NCBI GenBank assembly: GCA_965206645.1
Contig: CBDBKE010000004.1
Coordinates: 256,001-320,000 of the forward strand
Length of the DNA stretch: 64,000 bases
Direction: 5' to 3'
Origin: Terriglobia bacterium
GTDB lineage: Bacteria; Acidobacteriota; Terriglobia; JAJPHL01; JAPKYU01
The stretch's first letter is position 1. Each line of letters begins with the position of its first letter. The translations under genes were made by a program, and so were the position numbers. This document shows, piece after piece, positions 31,212-36,753 of this stretch. Below the pieces are notes generated by a model that worked only from the letters and a program-made list of their open reading frames with translations, was not told where the DNA came from and made no database searches.

Positions 31212-31349
31212 GAATCCCGCATTGGAAGTTTGCGATCATCCGGCTGCACCCCTCGTGTTGCGGCGGGGAGGCGGATTCCTCGCTGCGCTCGGAATGGCGG
31301 AGAAGCGACTTTTGCATCATTTTGCCAGGAGGCTTATATACTCTCTGCC

Positions 31350-32669
31350 ATGAATCGCCGATGCCTCCTGTGGTGGAGTTTTCTGCTCCTTGTAGCGGTT
31401 TCCGTGCGGGCTGAGGATTGGCCGGAATGGCGGGGGAAGGGCCGGCTCGGTGTGTGGACGGAAACCGGTGTTCTGGAAACCTTCTCTGAAAAGGGACTGC
31501 AGATTAAGTGGCGGACGCCAATCAAGGGAGGCTACAGCGGTCCGGCCGTGGCGGGAGGTCGGGTGTTTGTCCTGGATTTCTCTCCCACGGAAGTGAACAA
31601 AGGGATCGAGCGCCTCCTCTGTCTAGATGAAAAAACAGGCCGCATTCTTTGGACACGGGAGTGGGAGACTGACTACACGGGCCTCATGGGAACGTATGCC
31701 ATCGGGCCGCGGACCACGCCGACGGTGGATGGCGATCGCGTGTACGCCTTGGGCACCACCGGCATTCTCCTCTGCCTCAGCGTCAAGAACGGCGCGATCC
31801 TGTGGAAGAAAGATTTTGTGAACGACTACGGGACCGAGGTGCCGGTCTGGGGAATGACCGGCGCGCCGGTGGTGGACGGGGCGCGACTCATCGCGCTGGT
31901 GGGGGGCAAGCCGGATGCCAAGGTGGTGGCGTTCGACAAAATGACTGGGGAGGAAATCTGGCGGTCCCTTCCTTCGAGCAGCGAGCCGGGGTATTGCCCG
32001 CCGGTCCTCATCCAGGCTGGCGGCGCGCGGCAACTGCTGATCTGGCATCCTCAGGCGCTCGCCTCCCTGGACCCGGCAACCGGCAAGGTTTACTGGGAGC
32101 AACCCTTCAAGGTTCGCTCCAGTCTCACAGTCGCAACTCCGGTTCGGAGCGGGTCGCGCCTGCTGGTCTCTTCGTTTTACAACGGCAGCATGATGCTGGA
32201 ACTCAATCCGGCCAAACCTCGCGGCCGCCTGATCTGGAAAGGCAAAAGCGACAGCGAGATCAAAACCGACGGTCTGCACGCGCTCATTTCGACTCCGGTC
32301 GTAGCCGGGGACTACATCTACGGTATCTGCAGTTACGGCCAATTTCGTTGCTTGAACGCCAAAACCGGTGAGCGCATTTGGGAAACCCTTGCGGTGACGA
32401 AAGAACGAGCCAGATGGGCTGCAGGGTTTATCGTTCGCCACGGGGATCGCTACTTCATTAACAACGACCGCGGTGAGTTGATCATTGCAAAGTTGTCGCC
32501 CGCAGGGTATCGGGAAATCAGTCGCACCAAGCTGATTCAGCCGACGTCCCGCGTCAGCAGGCGTCGCGAACTTGGCGCGGTGAACTGGTCGCATCCCGCT
32601 TACGCGAACAAGCACATCTTCGCACGTAACGACAAAGAAATCCTCTGCGCTTCGCTGGAGAAGAAGTAG
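31350..32669 (+). CDS. PQQ-binding-like beta-propeller repeat protein
   Basis: Signal peptide, EDWPEWRG, GYSGPAVAGGRVF, repeated LDxxTGxxxW and WSHPAYAN motifs. Confidence 0.9.
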   Translation: MNRRCLLWWSFLLLVAVSVRAEDWPEWRGKGRLGVWTETGVLETFSEKGLQIKWRTPIKGGYSGPAVAGGRVFVLDFSPTEVNKGIERLLCLDEKTGRILWTREWETDYTGLMGTYAIGPRTTPTVDGDRVYALGTTGILLCLSVKNGAILWKKDFVNDYGTEVPVWGMTGAPVVDGARLIALVGGKPDAKVVAFDKMTGEEIWRSLPSSSEPGYCPPVLIQAGGARQLLIWHPQALASLDPATGKVYWEQPFKVRSSLTVATPVRSGSRLLVSSFYNGSMMLELNPAKPRGRLIWKGKSDSEIKTDGLHALISTPVVAGDYIYGICSYGQFRCLNAKTGERIWETLAVTKERARWAAGFIVRHGDRYFINNDRGELIIAKLSPAGYREISRTKLIQPTSRVSRRRELGAVNWSHPAYANKHIFARNDKEILCASLEKK

Positions 32670-32722
32670 GGGCCGCTCCCTCACGATCGCGGCTCGTCGG
32701 GCGCGGGTGGCTCAATGAAATT

Positions 32723-33464
32723 GGGTCCCGAGTGACCTCTCGGGCAAGCTCTCCTCTTCCGTCTCGACTACGATCCCCCGAACGTCCGTTCCCGGTTCTC
32801 CCGGGATAGGCGACTGAAGCTCCGCGTGCGCTCTTCCCCGATTCCGCTCGTCGTCGACGCTCGATCTTCCTGCCTTGCGACAGAAAGGCACCGAAACCAG
32901 GGTTGCCGCGTACGGTATCCCCGACCCTTACTCGGCTGAAACCTTGCGACCCCAGCCTTTCACAGCCGGATATTCTCCTGTCGATCCTTCCCGAAAAACC
33001 TCTTCAGCTCCCCGGGTTGGCGTCCAAGGGTCCTCCGGTCCGACCCTCCTCCCGACCTTTCGATCGGGATTTAGGCCCCCAGTGGTTTCCCTGGCTATCC
33101 CTGCCCCGCGCCTTGCAGCGGGGTTCGGTGACCGAGCTATCCCTGCAGTTCCAACCCGGCGCCTTGCGGCCCCGAGCCAGCCTGCGCTTCCTGCTCAGTT
33201 CTTCGACGGCGGAGCCTTTCAGCTAACGCCACCGCGCTTCCAGTTCCTCCCTGGGTTTTTCCAGTCGGGTCACCCTTGCGGGCGCTCTGACTGGCCGTCC
33301 GGGATTTCCCCTGGGTTCCTGCCGGCCCGCAATTACTTGCGAGCCAGTCGTCCACAGGTTCCCTTCAGGTCCTTCTGATCCCAACCTTGCGACTGAGATC
33401 AGTTGTTCGGGATCCGCAATCTTCAGCAGAATGCTTAGCCTGCCTTCCAGATCTCTCGGAACCC
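32723..33464 (-). ncRNA. Candidate large (~742 nt) highly structured non-coding RNA of unknown class
   Basis: 5' GGGUUCCGAG pairs with 3' CUCGGGACCC, and a nested GGCAGGCU/AGCUUGCC helix follows. GNRA-capped G-U-rich hairpins at 33375-33402, 33322-33347, 33261-33294, 33050-33069, 32934-32957 and 32866-32887, among others. Promoter directly upstream; no credible ORF. Confidence 0.75.
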
Positions 33465-33471
33465 GGGCGTC

Positions 33472-33500
33472 TTTTTACTCTTCGCGCAAGAACGAGTCAA
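33472..33500 (-). promoter_or_regulatory. Sigma70-type promoter for the candidate ncRNA
   Basis: TTGACT (33500-33495), 17-nt spacer, TAAAAA (33477-33472). A/T-rich UP-like tract at ~33501-33524. Predicted +1 near G33464, the first base of the closing helix. Confidence 0.7.
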
Positions 33501-33748
33501 GAATTTTATTCTCTTTCTTTTCAACACGTAAGAAATCCGCAGGCTTCTTCGTGCAGCAATGCAATCACGGCTTTGGCAAGCTCTGCCCGGAGCGGCAGAG
33601 TCGCCCGGTCCAACCTGATGAAACCCGCGCCAGTCATGGCTCTTGCGCTCTGCACCGTCGTGCAGCAGAACGAGCTAGAACAGAAGATTCCCAGGATGTT
33701 CAGCTATGCCTAGACTGGACCTGACAGTGAGTTAAGAAATGCGTCGGG

Positions 33749-34780
33749 CTAGCGAAGTTCTTCCATGATCTCGTCCAGCACCTCTTTGTTTGGCCGGACG
33801 CTGTCTTCGGGCAGAGAGGCGAGTGGTGCGTCCACCATGTTCAGTAAATCCAGAAAATTCTTTTGGCGGGTTTCCAGATAGAGCAAACCCGTGAAGATGT
33901 GCCCTGTCTGCTGCGATTCCAGCAGGGCCCCGAGCGCGCCAGACTTGCTGGTGGGATCGTAGTCGTGGCCGAGCTTCTTCAGCACCACTCGCGAGCCGTC
34001 GTGCATCTCGACCTCCGTCGTTTGGCCGGGCTCATAATCCACGTCGATCTCTTTATAGGTTGGAATGAAGTCAATCTCGTGCAGCGGCTCCTCGTGCTGC
34101 TTCATGTAGGAGTAGCTCTTGGTTGAACCCTTGTGGTCGTTGAAGGCGACACACGGGGAAATGATGTCCAGCAGGATGGCGCCGCGGTGGGAGGTGGCCG
34201 CCTTCAACAGGGCCAGCAGTTGCTTCTTGTCGCCGGAGAACGAACGGGCCACGAAAGTGGCACCTAACTGAATCGCCAGGGCGCAGCAGTCAATCGTCGG
34301 CAGGTCGTTGACGGCCCCGCTCTTCAGCTTCGACCCTGTGTCGGCGGTGGCCGAGAACTGGCCTTTAGTGAGCCCGTACACGCCGTTGTTCTCGATGACG
34401 TAGATGATGGGCAGGTTGCGGCGCATGAGGTGGACAAACTGTCCGATGCCGATCGAGGCGGTGTCGCCGTCACCGCTGACCCCGATTTGAACCAGGTTGC
34501 GATTGGCCATCGCCGCTCCGGTCGCCACAGAGGGCATCCGGCCATGGACGCTATTGAAGCCGTGCGAGCCTTGCAGAAAGTAGGCGGGCGTTTTACTGGA
34601 GCAGCCGATCCCGCTGAACTTGGTTACCTGGTAGGGGTCGACCCCCAGGTCGTAGAAGGCGTCGATGATGCGCTCGGAGATGGCGTTGTGGCCGCAGCCG
34701 GCGCACAGTGTGGTCTTGCTGCCGCGGTAGACGGCCAGCTCCAACCCGACTCGGTTCAGTTTCTGAGGCGTGGCGCTCAT
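33749..34780 (-). CDS. korB: 2-oxoacid:ferredoxin oxidoreductase beta subunit
   Basis: LCAGCGH, SGIGCSSK, HGR, SGDGD..SIG, NNGVYGLTKGQFS and SPCV motifs. Confidence 0.92.
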   Translation of the reverse strand: MSATPQKLNRVGLELAVYRGSKTTLCAGCGHNAISERIIDAFYDLGVDPYQVTKFSGIGCSSKTPAYFLQGSHGFNSVHGRMPSVATGAAMANRNLVQIGVSGDGDTASIGIGQFVHLMRRNLPIIYVIENNGVYGLTKGQFSATADTGSKLKSGAVNDLPTIDCCALAIQLGATFVARSFSGDKKQLLALLKAATSHRGAILLDIISPCVAFNDHKGSTKSYSYMKQHEEPLHEIDFIPTYKEIDVDYEPGQTTEVEMHDGSRVVLKKLGHDYDPTSKSGALGALLESQQTGHIFTGLLYLETRQKNFLDLLNMVDAPLASLPEDSVRPNKEVLDEIMEELR

Positions 34781-36645
34781 CTTGCCGCTGCTTTCTGCTC
34801 GGCGGGGATTCCTTCCTGGGCGAGGATGCCGTCGGTCACGCTGCGGGCATCCACCGGGAGGCCGTTGTAGTGGCGAATGCTGCGCAGCCTCTCCACGTTG
34901 CCCAAGGCCAGGTCAAGCCGAAGCAGGTCGTACATCTGGCCGTCGCGGTTCTGTTCCACCACGTAAACGCGCCGGTGGCTGTGAACGAACTCCTTGACTG
35001 CGTCGGTAAACGGGTAGCCCCGCAGGCGCAGGTAATCGGTTTCCATGCCATGCTCAGCGCGAAGCTGGTCGCGTGTTTCGACGATGGCCCAGTGGGTGGT
35101 GCCAAAGGCGATGATGCCCACCTCCGCACCATGCTCGTCCGCCTCCGCAGCTGGCACCATCTGGCGCGCGGTTTCGAACTTGCGGGCCAGCCGGTCCATG
35201 TTGTCCTTATAGTCAGCGGAGCGCTCGGTGTACTCGGCATTCTCGTTGTGGCCGCTGCCTCGAGCAAACCAGGCGGCGCGGGGATGACGCGTACCAGGCA
35301 GTGTGCGGTACGGTATGGCGTCGCCATCCACGTCCTTGTAGCGCCCCCATTGCTTCACTCTGTCCAAGTCTTCTGCTGAGAGGACCTTGCCCCGCCGCAG
35401 GGACTTGGCGGGATAGGGAAACGGGTCCGACATCCAATTGTTCATCCCCAGGTCCAGATCACTCATGATGAACACCGGCGTCTGCAGCTCGTCGGCCAGA
35501 TTGAATGCCTCCTGGGCCATGGCAAAGACTTCGTCGACCGAGCACGGAAACAGCATCACGTGTTTGGTGTCGCCATGGGAGAGGAACGCAGTAGACAGAA
35601 TGTCGCCTTGCATGGTGCGGGTGGGCAGGCCGGTGGAAGGCCCGACGCGCTGGATGTCAAAGATCACCGCTGGCAATTCCACGTAGTAGCCTAGACCGAC
35701 GAATTCCGACATCAGTGAGATTCCGGGACCGGAAGTGGAGGTCATGGAGCGAGCCCCGGCCCAGCTGGCTCCTAGAACCATGCCGATGGCGGCAAGTTCA
35801 TCTTCCGCCTGAACGATGGCGAAGGTGGCCTTGCCAGTTTCCGGGTCGGTGCGGTAGCGCTCCATGTACTGCCCCAGGGCCTCGCATAGCGACGAGGAAG
35901 GCGTAATGGGGTACCAGGTGACTACCGTGACGCCGGCAAACATACAGCCGAGCGCCGCCGCGGAGTTCCCATCAATGATGATCTTGCCCCGGGTGGCGTT
36001 CATTGACTCGACCCAGTAGGGGTCGCGCTTGGGAAGGTTCTGTTCGGCGTAGCTGTGGCCGACCTTCGCGGCGTTCCAGTTGAGCTCGGCGGCCTTGGCC
36101 TTCTTCTTGAACTGCTTGCGGAGTGCCTTCTCGACCTGGTCTATGTCAATGCCCAGCAGGCGCGCGACCACCCCGTCGTAGATCATGTTCCGGACCAGCC
36201 TGCGGAGCTTGGCGTCGGGGCAGCAGGTAGCCACCAGCTTGCCAAAGGGGACTGGGTAAAACACCAAGTCGTCGCGTAGCTGGTTCAGGTTCAGCGGTTC
36301 GTCGTAGACGACGGCGGCGCCTGGCGCCAAGCCTTGAACGTCTTCTCTGGCTGTTTCCTGGTTCATTGCCACCAGGAAATCAATTTCCTTCTTGCGTGCG
36401 ACGTATCCATGTTTGTTGGCGCGGATGGTGTACCAGGTGGGAAGCCCAGCGATATTGGAGGGAAACAGATTCTTGCCGGAAACGGGCACGCCCATCTGGA
36501 AAATGGCGCGCAGCAGGACCATATTGGCCGTCTGGCTGCCGGAACCGTTCACGGTGGCGACCTGAATACTCAGGTCGTTAATGATGCGGTCCTGCTGAAG
36601 TTGCTGAAAGTCGGCTTCGCGTGGGACGGTCGCCGTGGTGGACAT
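34777..36645 (-). CDS. korA: 2-oxoacid:acceptor oxidoreductase alpha subunit
   Basis: NGSGSQ, WYPITPSS, QAEDELAA, TSGPGISLM, QRVGPSTGLPT and VVEQNRDGQ motifs. Confidence 0.93.
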   Translation of the reverse strand: MSTTATVPREADFQQLQQDRIINDLSIQVATVNGSGSQTANMVLLRAIFQMGVPVSGKNLFPSNIAGLPTWYTIRANKHGYVARKKEIDFLVAMNQETAREDVQGLAPGAAVVYDEPLNLNQLRDDLVFYPVPFGKLVATCCPDAKLRRLVRNMIYDGVVARLLGIDIDQVEKALRKQFKKKAKAAELNWNAAKVGHSYAEQNLPKRDPYWVESMNATRGKIIIDGNSAAALGCMFAGVTVVTWYPITPSSSLCEALGQYMERYRTDPETGKATFAIVQAEDELAAIGMVLGASWAGARSMTSTSGPGISLMSEFVGLGYYVELPAVIFDIQRVGPSTGLPTRTMQGDILSTAFLSHGDTKHVMLFPCSVDEVFAMAQEAFNLADELQTPVFIMSDLDLGMNNWMSDPFPYPAKSLRRGKVLSAEDLDRVKQWGRYKDVDGDAIPYRTLPGTRHPRAAWFARGSGHNENAEYTERSADYKDNMDRLARKFETARQMVPAAEADEHGAEVGIIAFGTTHWAIVETRDQLRAEHGMETDYLRLRGYPFTDAVKEFVHSHRRVYVVEQNRDGQMYDLLRLDLALGNVERLRSIRHYNGLPVDARSVTDGILAQEGIPAEQKAAAR

Positions 36646-36753
36646 GCCTTCTCCCGGAGTGAGTGCCGGCTCCAAAACCTTTATTATAGCAAGATTGAGG
36701 GGCGGCGATGCTACTGAAGGAAAATCTCAGATAACTGAAATGGACACACGTGC

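Follow-up and report, generated by a model that had tools for sequence, protein, structure and literature searches.

A gene for a structured non-coding RNA was found on the minus strand of the 64-kb window (the whole stretch of Terriglobia DNA that was analysed), and all main elements named for it in the initial annotation were found in the sequence at the positions assigned to them there. The gene and its associated features were as follows:

33501 to 33520, minus strand: A-rich tract upstream of the -35 element, possibly acting like an UP element; A-rich in all upstream regions listed
33495 to 33500, minus strand: -35 element TTGACT; TTGAC equidistant in 24 of 24 distinct homologue upstream regions
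33472 to 33477, minus strand: -10-like hexamer TAAAAA, at a spacer of 17 nt from the -35 element and 7 nt ahead of GGG
32723 to 33464, minus strand: RNA gene of 742 nt, from GGGUUCCGAG to CUCGGGACCC, delimited by the fold, full-length homologues, and a covarying consensus
33449 to 33464, minus strand: 5' strand of closing helix P1, GGGUUCCGAG-A-GAUCU, partner 32723 to 32738; minimum-free-energy (MFE) fold and homologues
33437 to 33444, minus strand: 5' strand of helix P2, GGCAGGCU, partner 32743 to 32750; MFE fold and homologues
32743 to 32750, minus strand: 3' strand of helix P2, AGCUUGCC; helix 2 of the alignment
32723 to 32738, minus strand: 3' strand of closing helix P1, AGGUC-A-CUCGGGACCC; MFE fold and homologues
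33076 to 33199, minus strand: most conserved core, AAGAAGCGCAGGC ... GGAACUGC.GGGA ... CACCGAACC ... GCCAGGGAAACC; alignment A3, the basis of covariance model R1
32875 to 33390, minus strand: span with nine GNRA-capped hairpins, from the MFE fold and the covariation-based consensus
GNRA loops within this span, minus strand: 33390-33387 GCAA, 33336-33333 GUAA, 33279-33276 GCAA, 33220-33217 GAAA, 33167-33164 GCAA, 33116-33113 GCAA, 33061-33058 GAAA, 32947-32944 GCAA, and 32878-32875 GCAA
32712 to 32722, minus strand: U-rich tract directly 3' of the closing helix, a possible termination signal
32875 to 33378, plus strand: spurious 167-codon open reading frame (ORF) antisense to the RNA; no Pfam family, no codon periodicity

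The RNA would be transcribed from its own sigma-70-type promoter (TTGAC, 17 nt, and a TA-rich hexamer). The promoter proposed at the outset (TTGACT-17-TAAAAA, with +1 near 33464) was borne out: its elements were present, TTGAC-17-TA was kept at a fixed distance in 24/24 homologue upstream regions, all of which carried TAAAAN, TATAAC, or TATTCT at the -10 position, and GGGUUCC formed the RNA 5' start at 33464. No promoter was reported at the RNA locus by a simple sigma-70 scanner, because the final T was absent from the -10 hexamer; the promoter was therefore called from positional conservation in homologues, not from a consensus match. It accompanied the RNA in homologues, also ahead of each copy in tandem pairs. 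The 3' end would lie at the U-rich tract just past the helix joining both ends of the molecule; complete homologues ended in GGAACCC or GGGACCC followed by U-rich sequence, and a local scan of the RNA's strand found no hairpin terminator after the RNA.

The minus strand folded at -359.4 kcal/mol (z = -8.43; 0 of 20 shuffles as good) versus -269.4 kcal/mol (z = -1.70) for the plus strand, a strand asymmetry that agreed with the one claimed initially. The two helices said to close the molecule across its ends were both in the MFE fold and both kept in homologues (95.5% paired for P1, helix 1 of the alignment, and 84.1% for P2). The 15 pairs of P1 comprised 10 invariant pairs, 4 with one-sided changes and pairing kept, and 1 with a two-sided change; such near-invariance is compatible with pairing but hardly proves it by covariation. 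P2 displayed two-sided changes in four of its seven pairs.

The consensus structure, built from 29 distinct sequences, had 227 pairs in 35 helices, 94.0% of them canonical (86.4% in shuffles, 0/500 of which reached 94.0%, and 33.8-46.8% with partners slid). Changes on both sides occurred in 98 pairs versus 57.3 in shuffles and 25-34 with partners slid, so that covariation among homologues was strong, but no more than about five or six lineages in the alignment were clearly separate, and cell counts therefore overstate independent events. Model R1 scored 141 bits at this locus and 88-140 bits in homologues, and a compensatory change (GCAG/CUGC to GCGG/CCGC) was seen within the core in one copy of genome G007. 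A search of the unpaired columns for covarying antiparallel stacks of at least 4 yielded a single weak candidate, and no pseudoknot or tetraloop receptor was identified. Model R1 also gave matches within the RNA's own 5' region (11.9 bits here, 23.1 and 12.8 bits in G007); these self-matches were too weak for a claim of internal duplication.

Of the 13 hairpins in the MFE fold, 7 were capped by GNRA tetraloops, whereas 60 dinucleotide shuffles averaged 0.72 and never exceeded 2; the covariation-based consensus added two GNRA hairpins (GCAA at 33116-33113 and GAAA at 33220-33217). The earlier count of about ten such hairpins was thereby corrected to nine. Several loops kept GNRA while N and R varied in homologues, as with GCAA, GUGA, GAAA, GCGA, and GUAA at alignment columns 474-477. 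The molecule forms a deeply nested fold of about 35 helices, in which the 5' and 3' ends make a long terminal stalk enclosing two multi-branched domains, with hairpins mostly GNRA-capped and linkers conserved and purine-rich.

There is next to no probability that the plus-strand ORF is real and that the region instead codes for its 167-aa protein. Antisense frames of 87-200 codons were open in all homologues, but antisense stop codons are rare because this strand is pyrimidine-rich, and the predicted product was a low-complexity string rich in P/R/S/F without a Pfam family. Substitutions were spread flatly over the three codon positions (59:60:63 in four close relatives), and in 19 of 28 homologues the ORF segment differed in length by a number of bases not divisible by three, with the frame lost; the conserved coding signal that would have contradicted a non-coding RNA was accordingly not found in 32875-33378.

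Transcription was supported by public RNA libraries. Seven runs recorded as metatranscriptomic RNA-seq contained 36-63% of the sampled words of the RNA, and contigs of three RNA-seq studies plus one run guessed to be RNA covered the stretch from 32727 to 33465, including a 701-nt contig of run X4 over 32765-33465 with zero differences. Contigs give neither strand, ends, nor level, and the transcript ends are therefore those marked by promoter position, closing helix, and contig ends only. In four runs, word depth was zero or near-zero (maximum 1.9) in the bins outside 32710-33519, while summed word depths in the RNA bins reached ~8.2e5 (X14), 1.2e4 (X17), 233 (X19), and 31 (X4); this contrast is a weak hint only of a discrete, abundant transcript, because contigs give no local depth, their holders were chosen by query, and an uncovered part proves nothing. 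In three of 14 scanned metagenome contigs, the family member ran straight into 23S rRNA, RNase P RNA, or eukaryotic 18S rRNA, and such chimeras are expected in assemblies from abundant RNAs.

Homologues of 735-810 nt occurred in 8 of the 11 species genomes of its own Terriglobia order, all eight matched by model R1, and on 26 metagenome contigs. A ninth genome of the order (G005) held fragments of the RNA at two contig ends, and the two genomes without a match were 71% and 77% complete. The hosts form a single group of acidobacteria, uncultured and living in soil and sediment. Outside the order, model R1 matched 0/140 genomes of the class sample, blastn against 50 genomes from the class's ten remaining families gave no match, and in the phylum sample a further 150 genomes yielded weak R1 matches only (best 24.7 bits, E 0.027 per genome); the seven weak loci were regarded as noise, because the full-length nhmmer profile found nothing above 3.5 bits there. 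A pattern scan of genome contigs returned six records only, all metagenome-assembled genomes of the same order, and the same kind of scan returned 0 matches in viral contigs. As far as searched, the family does not extend beyond a single order of uncultured Terriglobia (Acidobacteriota); since the searches were samples and exact-pattern scans, this means not found in those searched rather than absent. The family is a narrow one, its order comprising 11 species genomes.

Within the order, the RNA behaves as a core gene, often in two tandem copies. It was single-copy in this genome, while tandem pairs were found in others, among them G007 and G008, the paired copies being 88-97% identical and their spacers containing no conserved partner gene or small ORF. 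Homologues carried 0-3 inserted GCAA-hairpin modules, and those of the second family of the order had a hairpin whose loop region contained an invariant AUCGAU palindrome. The flanking genes were shared within this genus and unlike between genera: (i) 2-oxoacid:ferredoxin oxidoreductase and PQQ propeller here; (ii) DUF507 and aldehyde dehydrogenase in G008; (iii) PEP-CTERM and CreD in G007; and (iv) TPR-thioredoxin and hemerythrin in G004. The position of the RNA 285 nt downstream of the oxidoreductase beta-subunit gene, on the same strand, in this genus would fit a cis-acting or processed piece of a neighbouring mRNA (the 3' UTR of the oxidoreductase operon), and an RNA of a mobile element would be a related explanation. 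Both were judged extremely unlikely, in view of the unrelated neighbours in three other genera, the promoter that moves with the RNA and precedes each tandem copy, the single copy in this genome, and the lack of any transposase, integrase, or repeat in the flanks examined.

Only a few bacterial non-coding RNAs are known that exceed ~500 nt and have conserved complex folds: rRNAs, RNase P, group I/II introns, OLE, ROOL, GOLLD, and a handful more. Membership in a known Rfam family, which would have removed novelty, was not observed: the 4227 models of Rfam 15 gave 0 matches at gathering score in the 64-kb window, and sensitive mode over 32400-33800 gave four matches of 11-18 bits against gathering scores of 32-70 (the best 18.1 bits versus 50), considered noise only. 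A full-text literature search, with subscription journals and supplementary files outside its scope, found no paper describing the RNA.

RNase P RNA and group II introns are multi-domain RNAs whose GNRA-capped hairpins serve tertiary docking, and the Terriglobia RNA has a similar multi-domain build with GNRA-capped hairpins, as in RNase P RNA or an ORF-less group II intron. The landmarks of RNase P, tmRNA, and group II introns were absent, as initially noted: Rfam gave no match, and bacterial type A RNase P RNA (RF00010) was a separate gene elsewhere in the genome (G000:C4:880648-881039, 299.7 bits). The group II features GUGYG at the 5' end, domain V, and an intron-encoded protein were not present; instead, the RNA began with GGGUUCC behind a promoter, sensitive mode up to E 10 gave no domain V/VI match, and no reverse transcriptase was encoded among the neighbouring ORFs. 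A highly diverged member of OLE, ROOL, GOLLD, raiA, RNase P, or ORF-less group II introns, missed by covariance models, is a very unlikely identity for this RNA. Its size is like that of GOLLD and ORF-less group II introns, and a weak group-II-D1D4-3 match of 94 nt was obtained (15.5 bits, E 2.3), but this match was below half of the gathering score of 32, and neither viral contigs nor, in the flanks examined, tRNA islands or phage genes were matched. The host phylum is also unlike those given for OLE, ROOL, and GOLLD in PMC12286853 and further abstracts.

OLE (ornate, large, extremophilic) usually lies in an operon with its own partner genes. Like the Terriglobia RNA, it is a large stand-alone bacterial non-coding RNA that combines many conserved helices with conserved unpaired nucleotides and whose neighbours do not reveal its function, but the Terriglobia RNA has its own promoter, variable neighbours, and hosts of another phylum. 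The OLE covariance model gave no match at gathering score or in sensitive mode, and no OLE partner genes (OapA and others) were found in the flanks here and in three other genera, which encoded unrelated enzymes and membrane proteins. OLE measures about 600 nt and belongs to Bacillota; it is an RNP component and forms dimers (PMC12054373, PMC9723947, and PMC12286853). ROOL (~580-660 nt) and GOLLD (>800 nt) are phage or prophage associated, often beside tRNA islands, form RNA-only nanocages, and have no known protein partner or function; in one strain, the level of ROOL was reported to equal that of 16S rRNA (PMC12286853). They are similar to the Terriglobia RNA in size range and ornate multi-helix folds, but the latter is chromosomal and syntenic within its genus, and it had no ROOL or GOLLD model match. 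The raiA motif RNA, likewise a structured orphan RNA with its own transcription unit, is an abundant RNA of about 200 nt from Bacillota and Actinomycetota (PMC11706538 and PMC12968392); it is more than three times smaller than the Terriglobia RNA and comes from other phyla, and no Rfam match linked the two. Judged by these comparisons, the Terriglobia RNA is of the scale of OLE, ROOL, and GOLLD but would be a member of none.

Sponge RNAs are simple hairpin arrays. Many GGA/GGGA motifs in single-stranded linkers, together with the RNA-library presence and an own strong-looking promoter, would fit a protein-sequestering sponge of the CsrB/RsmZ or 6S kind, with a global regulator titrated via GGA purine linkers. 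This is quite unlikely for the Terriglobia RNA: no CsrA gene (PF02599) was matched in the 97.9%-complete genome, there was no 6S match, the hairpin loops were GNRA and not GGA, and long-range nested helices with covariation were present, unlike in simple hairpin arrays.

Group I/II introns and RNase P are large, tetraloop-rich, and multi-domain, and the Terriglobia RNA has a comparable size and build; moreover, long unpaired stretches were invariant in 29 sequences (e.g., AAGAAGCGCAGGC, CACCGAACC, and GGAAACC). A catalytic role as a new large ribozyme, with the conserved unpaired purine-rich segments as its active site, could be drawn from these properties, but it was considered unlikely, as no substrate, cleavage site, or processing junction was evident, the ends matched a promoter and a U-tract rather than exon-like flanks, and no likeness to a known ribozyme model was detected. 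The large orphan RNAs of similar size (OLE, ROOL, and GOLLD) have also so far not been proved catalytic, according to PMC12286853.

The locus, with its demonstrated gene, fold, conservation, and RNA-library presence, very probably represents an independent gene for a stable, trans-acting, non-coding RNA of ~740 nt, belonging to an undescribed family and having a putative architectural role. The stand-alone structured RNA of possibly new class put forward in the initial annotation was thus supported, and none of the contrary results named there (a known family, a silent or non-covarying locus, or a coding signal) occurred. Rather than regulating a neighbouring gene, the RNA would be architectural: docking of its tetraloops into receptors in helices or internal loops would yield a compact scaffold particle, which would either recruit proteins encoded elsewhere or consist of RNA only.

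A bolder proposal, tentative and rather improbable, is that the RNA is the protomer of a natural RNA-only or RNA-dominated higher-order assembly; OLE, ROOL, and GOLLD would then be joined by a fourth ornate RNA particle, the first known from Acidobacteriota. The nine or so GNRA loops and the 0-3 GCAA-hairpin modules would then make inter- or intramolecular contacts, the diverged tandem genes could render the particle hetero-oligomeric, and a kissing-loop contact could be made through the AUCGAU hairpin of the order's second family, as a candidate.

Each of the large bacterial RNAs listed above has taught something new, the latest example being the RNA-only assemblies of ROOL, GOLLD, and OLE (PMC12286853). 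The new family brings a well-supported 35-helix fold, clear transcription signals, RNA-seq presence in several studies, and a defined host clade. Its members (735-810 nt) are short enough to be transcribed in vitro and studied by cryo-EM, and the role of the RNA is therefore directly testable despite the uncultured hosts. For the order itself, the RNA is a core gene that is currently missed by genome annotation.

The 742-nt RNA (32723-33464, minus strand) and its surroundings displayed the following features:

33749-36675, minus strand, two-gene 2-oxoacid:ferredoxin oxidoreductase operon just upstream of the RNA, on the same strand
34777-36675, minus strand, oxidoreductase alpha/gamma fusion gene of this operon
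33749-34780, minus strand, oxidoreductase TPP-binding beta gene of this operon
upstream of the -35 element, minus strand, A-rich tract at the sequence start of the region
33500-33495, minus strand, -35 element TTGACT
33477-33472, minus strand, -10-like element TAAAAA, 17 nt after TTGACT
from 33464, minus strand, RNA 5' end GGGUUCCGAGAGAUCU, seven bases past TAAAAA
33444-33437 and 32750-32743, minus strand, nested helix GGCAGGCU/AGCUUGCC
32738-32723, minus strand, RNA 3' end AGGUCACUCGGGACCC, complementary to the 5' end and followed by AAUUUCAUU
31230-32669, plus strand, PQQ/BamB-like beta-propeller gene converging on the RNA 3' end

The promoter TTGACT-17-TAAAAA proposed by the initial annotation was found in place, and its spacing was conserved: all 24 distinct upstream regions of homologues had TTGAC 17 nt ahead of a TA-rich hexamer (variants TAAAAN, TATAAC, and TATTCT), with an A-rich tract recurring upstream of TTGAC and 6-8 nt from the hexamer end to GGGUUCC. 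A simple consensus promoter scanner reported none in the window because the hexamer lacked the final T, and thus the promoter call rests on conservation among homologues. The closing 5'/3' complementarity and the nested helix were likewise read in the minus-strand sequence as proposed. All complete members had a U-rich tract after the RNA, with no separate terminator hairpin found there; the closing helix and U-tract would together end transcription or mark the mature end.

The minus-strand RNA folded at -359.4 kcal/mol (z -8.43 against 20 dinucleotide shuffles averaging -301.1, none folding as well), while the plus strand reached -269.4 kcal/mol (z -1.70), in agreement with the claimed strand specificity of the structure. 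GNRA tetraloops capped 7 of the 13 hairpins in the minimum-free-energy fold (60 shuffles: mean 0.72, maximum 2), and the comparative structure contained two further ones; the abundance of GNRA hairpins therefore stood, while the initial count of about ten did not. Fold energy, strand asymmetry, and GNRA counts relative to shuffles thus made the observation real and far beyond chance.

The comparative analysis was applied to A4, an alignment of 29 distinct members comprising all near-full-length nhmmer matches after removal of duplicates, in which chimeric or truncated ends were cut back to the segment that had matched, leaving 11-12 rows without the terminal helix. The consensus (RNAalifold plus terminal helices added by hand) had 227 pairs in 35 helices. 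The covariation sought for the family was present: (i) canonical pairs filled 94.0% of 6203 cells, compared to 86.4% in column shuffles (0/500 attaining 94.0%) and 33.8-46.8% when 3' partners were slid by 1-3 columns; and (ii) both-sided changes occurred at 98 pairs (shuffles 57.3, slid 25-34) with a covariation score of 0.274 (shuffles 0.146, slid 0.045-0.077), figures that overstate independent events because the sequences are related and represent about five or six lineages, yet the slid controls retained this relatedness and lay far below the observed values.

The terminal stalk consisted of six successive helices pairing the 5' 60 nt with the 3' 65 nt, and it enclosed, in order, a hairpin, a large domain that contains the conserved core (closing helices 8, 9, and 11), a second domain (helices 27-33), and a final hairpin. 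Compensatory changes were found in helices 2-9. In the outermost helix, 10 of 15 pairs never varied and four varied one-sidedly while still paired, which is compatible with pairing; sequence-specific recognition may also account for this near-invariance. Several loops remained GNRA despite varying middle bases (GCAA, GUGA, GAAA, GCGA, and GUAA at one position), and no convincing pseudoknot was found. R1, the covariance model of the core (33076-33199, built on the most conserved 125 positions), also had weak matches in the RNA's 5' third, scoring 11.9 bits in the scanned part of the window (32600-33600) and, in the related genome G007, 23.1 and 12.8 bits; these hint that the RNA is perhaps built of repeated hairpin-linker modules.

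Two segments varied among members. One arm (A4 columns 195-285) contained a natural expansion segment, the hairpin module GGAAGCCC-GCAA-GGGUGGAAGGCGA (about 25 nt), in 0, 1, 2, or 3 copies depending on the member (two in contig L019:2260-3078, three in L053 and L032, and no extra copy at window 33270-33290). At A4 columns 332-345 (window equivalent about 33205-33235), the source genus had a GAAA-capped hairpin; in the order's second family and in most members from metagenomes (e.g., L008:1152-1940), the hairpin loop region instead displayed an AUCGAU palindrome with a covarying stem around it, and this loop could form a kissing dimer.

The RNA was single-copy in the source genome, and blastn found it in 8 of 61 related genomes including that one: three congeneric genomes (97, 96, and 88% identity), two further members of the family, and two from the order's second family; it was found in none of 50 genomes representing the ten remaining families of the class. 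Within the order, R1 matched 8 of 11 species genomes; among the three without a match, G005 had blastn fragments at two contig ends, and the other two were 71% and 77% complete. It matched none of 140 class genomes outside the order, and elsewhere in the phylum (150 genomes) its matches were noise (best 24.7 bits). Exact-pattern scans yielded six records across one genome for each of 185,579 species, all titled as Terriglobia or uncultured Acidobacteriota MAGs, 26 metagenome contigs, and none among viral contigs. The seventeen members with both ends were 735-810 nt long, and the source lineage shared only 57-60% identity with second-family lineages.

Flanking genes were the same within the genus and unrelated between genera, and thus no neighbouring gene was linked to the RNA; as initially claimed, the ORFs nearby included no reverse transcriptase, transposase, or nuclease. 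Tandem pairs separated by 280-370 nt, each copy with its own promoter, were found in G004, G007 (87.6% identity between copies), G008 (96.6%), and metagenome contigs L029, L031, and L050. Pyrimidine repeats of the TTCCCAT(C)TTT type followed straight after the first copy's 3' end, with G008 having four consecutive ones. The compared spacers (L008:1936-2312, L031:212-540, and L050:759-1082) shared a conserved stretch GCATTTTGCTC.ACATTAGTGCAGCAAAATA with an inverted repeat about 60-100 nt ahead of the second copy's -35 element, which may be a regulator site.

Coding signal was sought in the antisense 167-codon plus-strand ORF (32875-33378), and the noncoding call held: substitutions per codon position were 59:60:63 in its segment among four close relatives, 19 of 28 homologues had segment length changes not divisible by three, and Pfam gave no family. 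Long open frames are expected on the plus strand because it is pyrimidine-rich. Rfam 15 (4227 models) gave no match at gathering score in the 64-kb window, consistent with the proposed novelty, and a permissive search of 32400-33800 gave four matches of 11-18 bits (E 2-7). A group II D1-D4 model matched partially at 15.5 bits (threshold 32); a group II intron was rejected, the RNA starting with GGGUUCC directly behind the promoter without a group II 5' splice site. RNase P RNA was correctly set aside, the genome's own copy lying elsewhere (G000:C4:880648-881039, 299.7 bits).

Among the runs listed, twenty from 12 studies contained the stretch or part of it, and seven were recorded as metatranscriptomic RNA-seq (containing 36-63% of the sampled words). 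Contigs of four runs were mapped on 31900-34300: a run guessed to be RNA had one 701-nt contig identical to 32765-33465, and three RNA-seq runs from three studies had pieces of 90-100% likeness within 32727-33450 (2030 contigs in one run). The anticipated transcript was thus covered by contigs from three RNA-seq studies, although assembled contigs cannot give its strand, ends, or level; the flanks lacked contig cover, a weak hint of a discrete abundant transcript.

When 14 metagenome contigs were compared with Rfam, three had a family member fused directly to another RNA (bacterial 23S rRNA, RNase P RNA, or eukaryotic 18S rRNA). Another contig started with a tRNA-like anticodon arm read by eye, with no tRNA or Rfam match to that sequence. 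We infer that these contigs are chimeras from assemblies of abundant RNAs. In metagenome contig L041:2-400, a complete RNase P RNA (230 bits) directly abutted the cut-off 3' end of a family member; this contig is a chimera assembled from RNA, or else the two RNA genes are neighbours. In metagenome contig L052:1-1174, two members (89% identical) followed each other in head-to-tail order with neither spacer nor promoter between them; the first ended ...GGAACCC, and the second began about 33 positions into the RNA. Two RNAs were probably merged during assembly here, and the contig may instead reflect a processed, permuted, or concatenated RNA form.

Taken together, this was a core gene of its clade with a strong-looking promoter of its own and variable neighbours; the RNA had a deeply nested fold with many GNRA loops and invariant purine-rich linkers, and it was present in RNA libraries. 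Such a combination matches the stable RNAs, architectural or catalytic, and not the regulators. A CsrB-like sponge is improbable, as no CsrA was found in the genome and the hairpins do not end in GGA loops, and a ribozyme is likewise improbable. The favoured functional reading, held at about even confidence, is a compact scaffold RNA acting as an RNP or RNA-only particle. No description of the RNA was found in the main text of the open-access articles searched. OLE, ROOL, GOLLD, and raiA were nearest in scale and style, but the RNA matched none of their models and its phylum differed from theirs; moreover, OLE partner genes and the phage or tRNA-island context of ROOL and GOLLD were absent nearby. 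The suggested new class comparable with OLE, GOLLD, and ROOL was placed among the large ornate orphan ncRNAs, a kind already known, in which it forms a new family.
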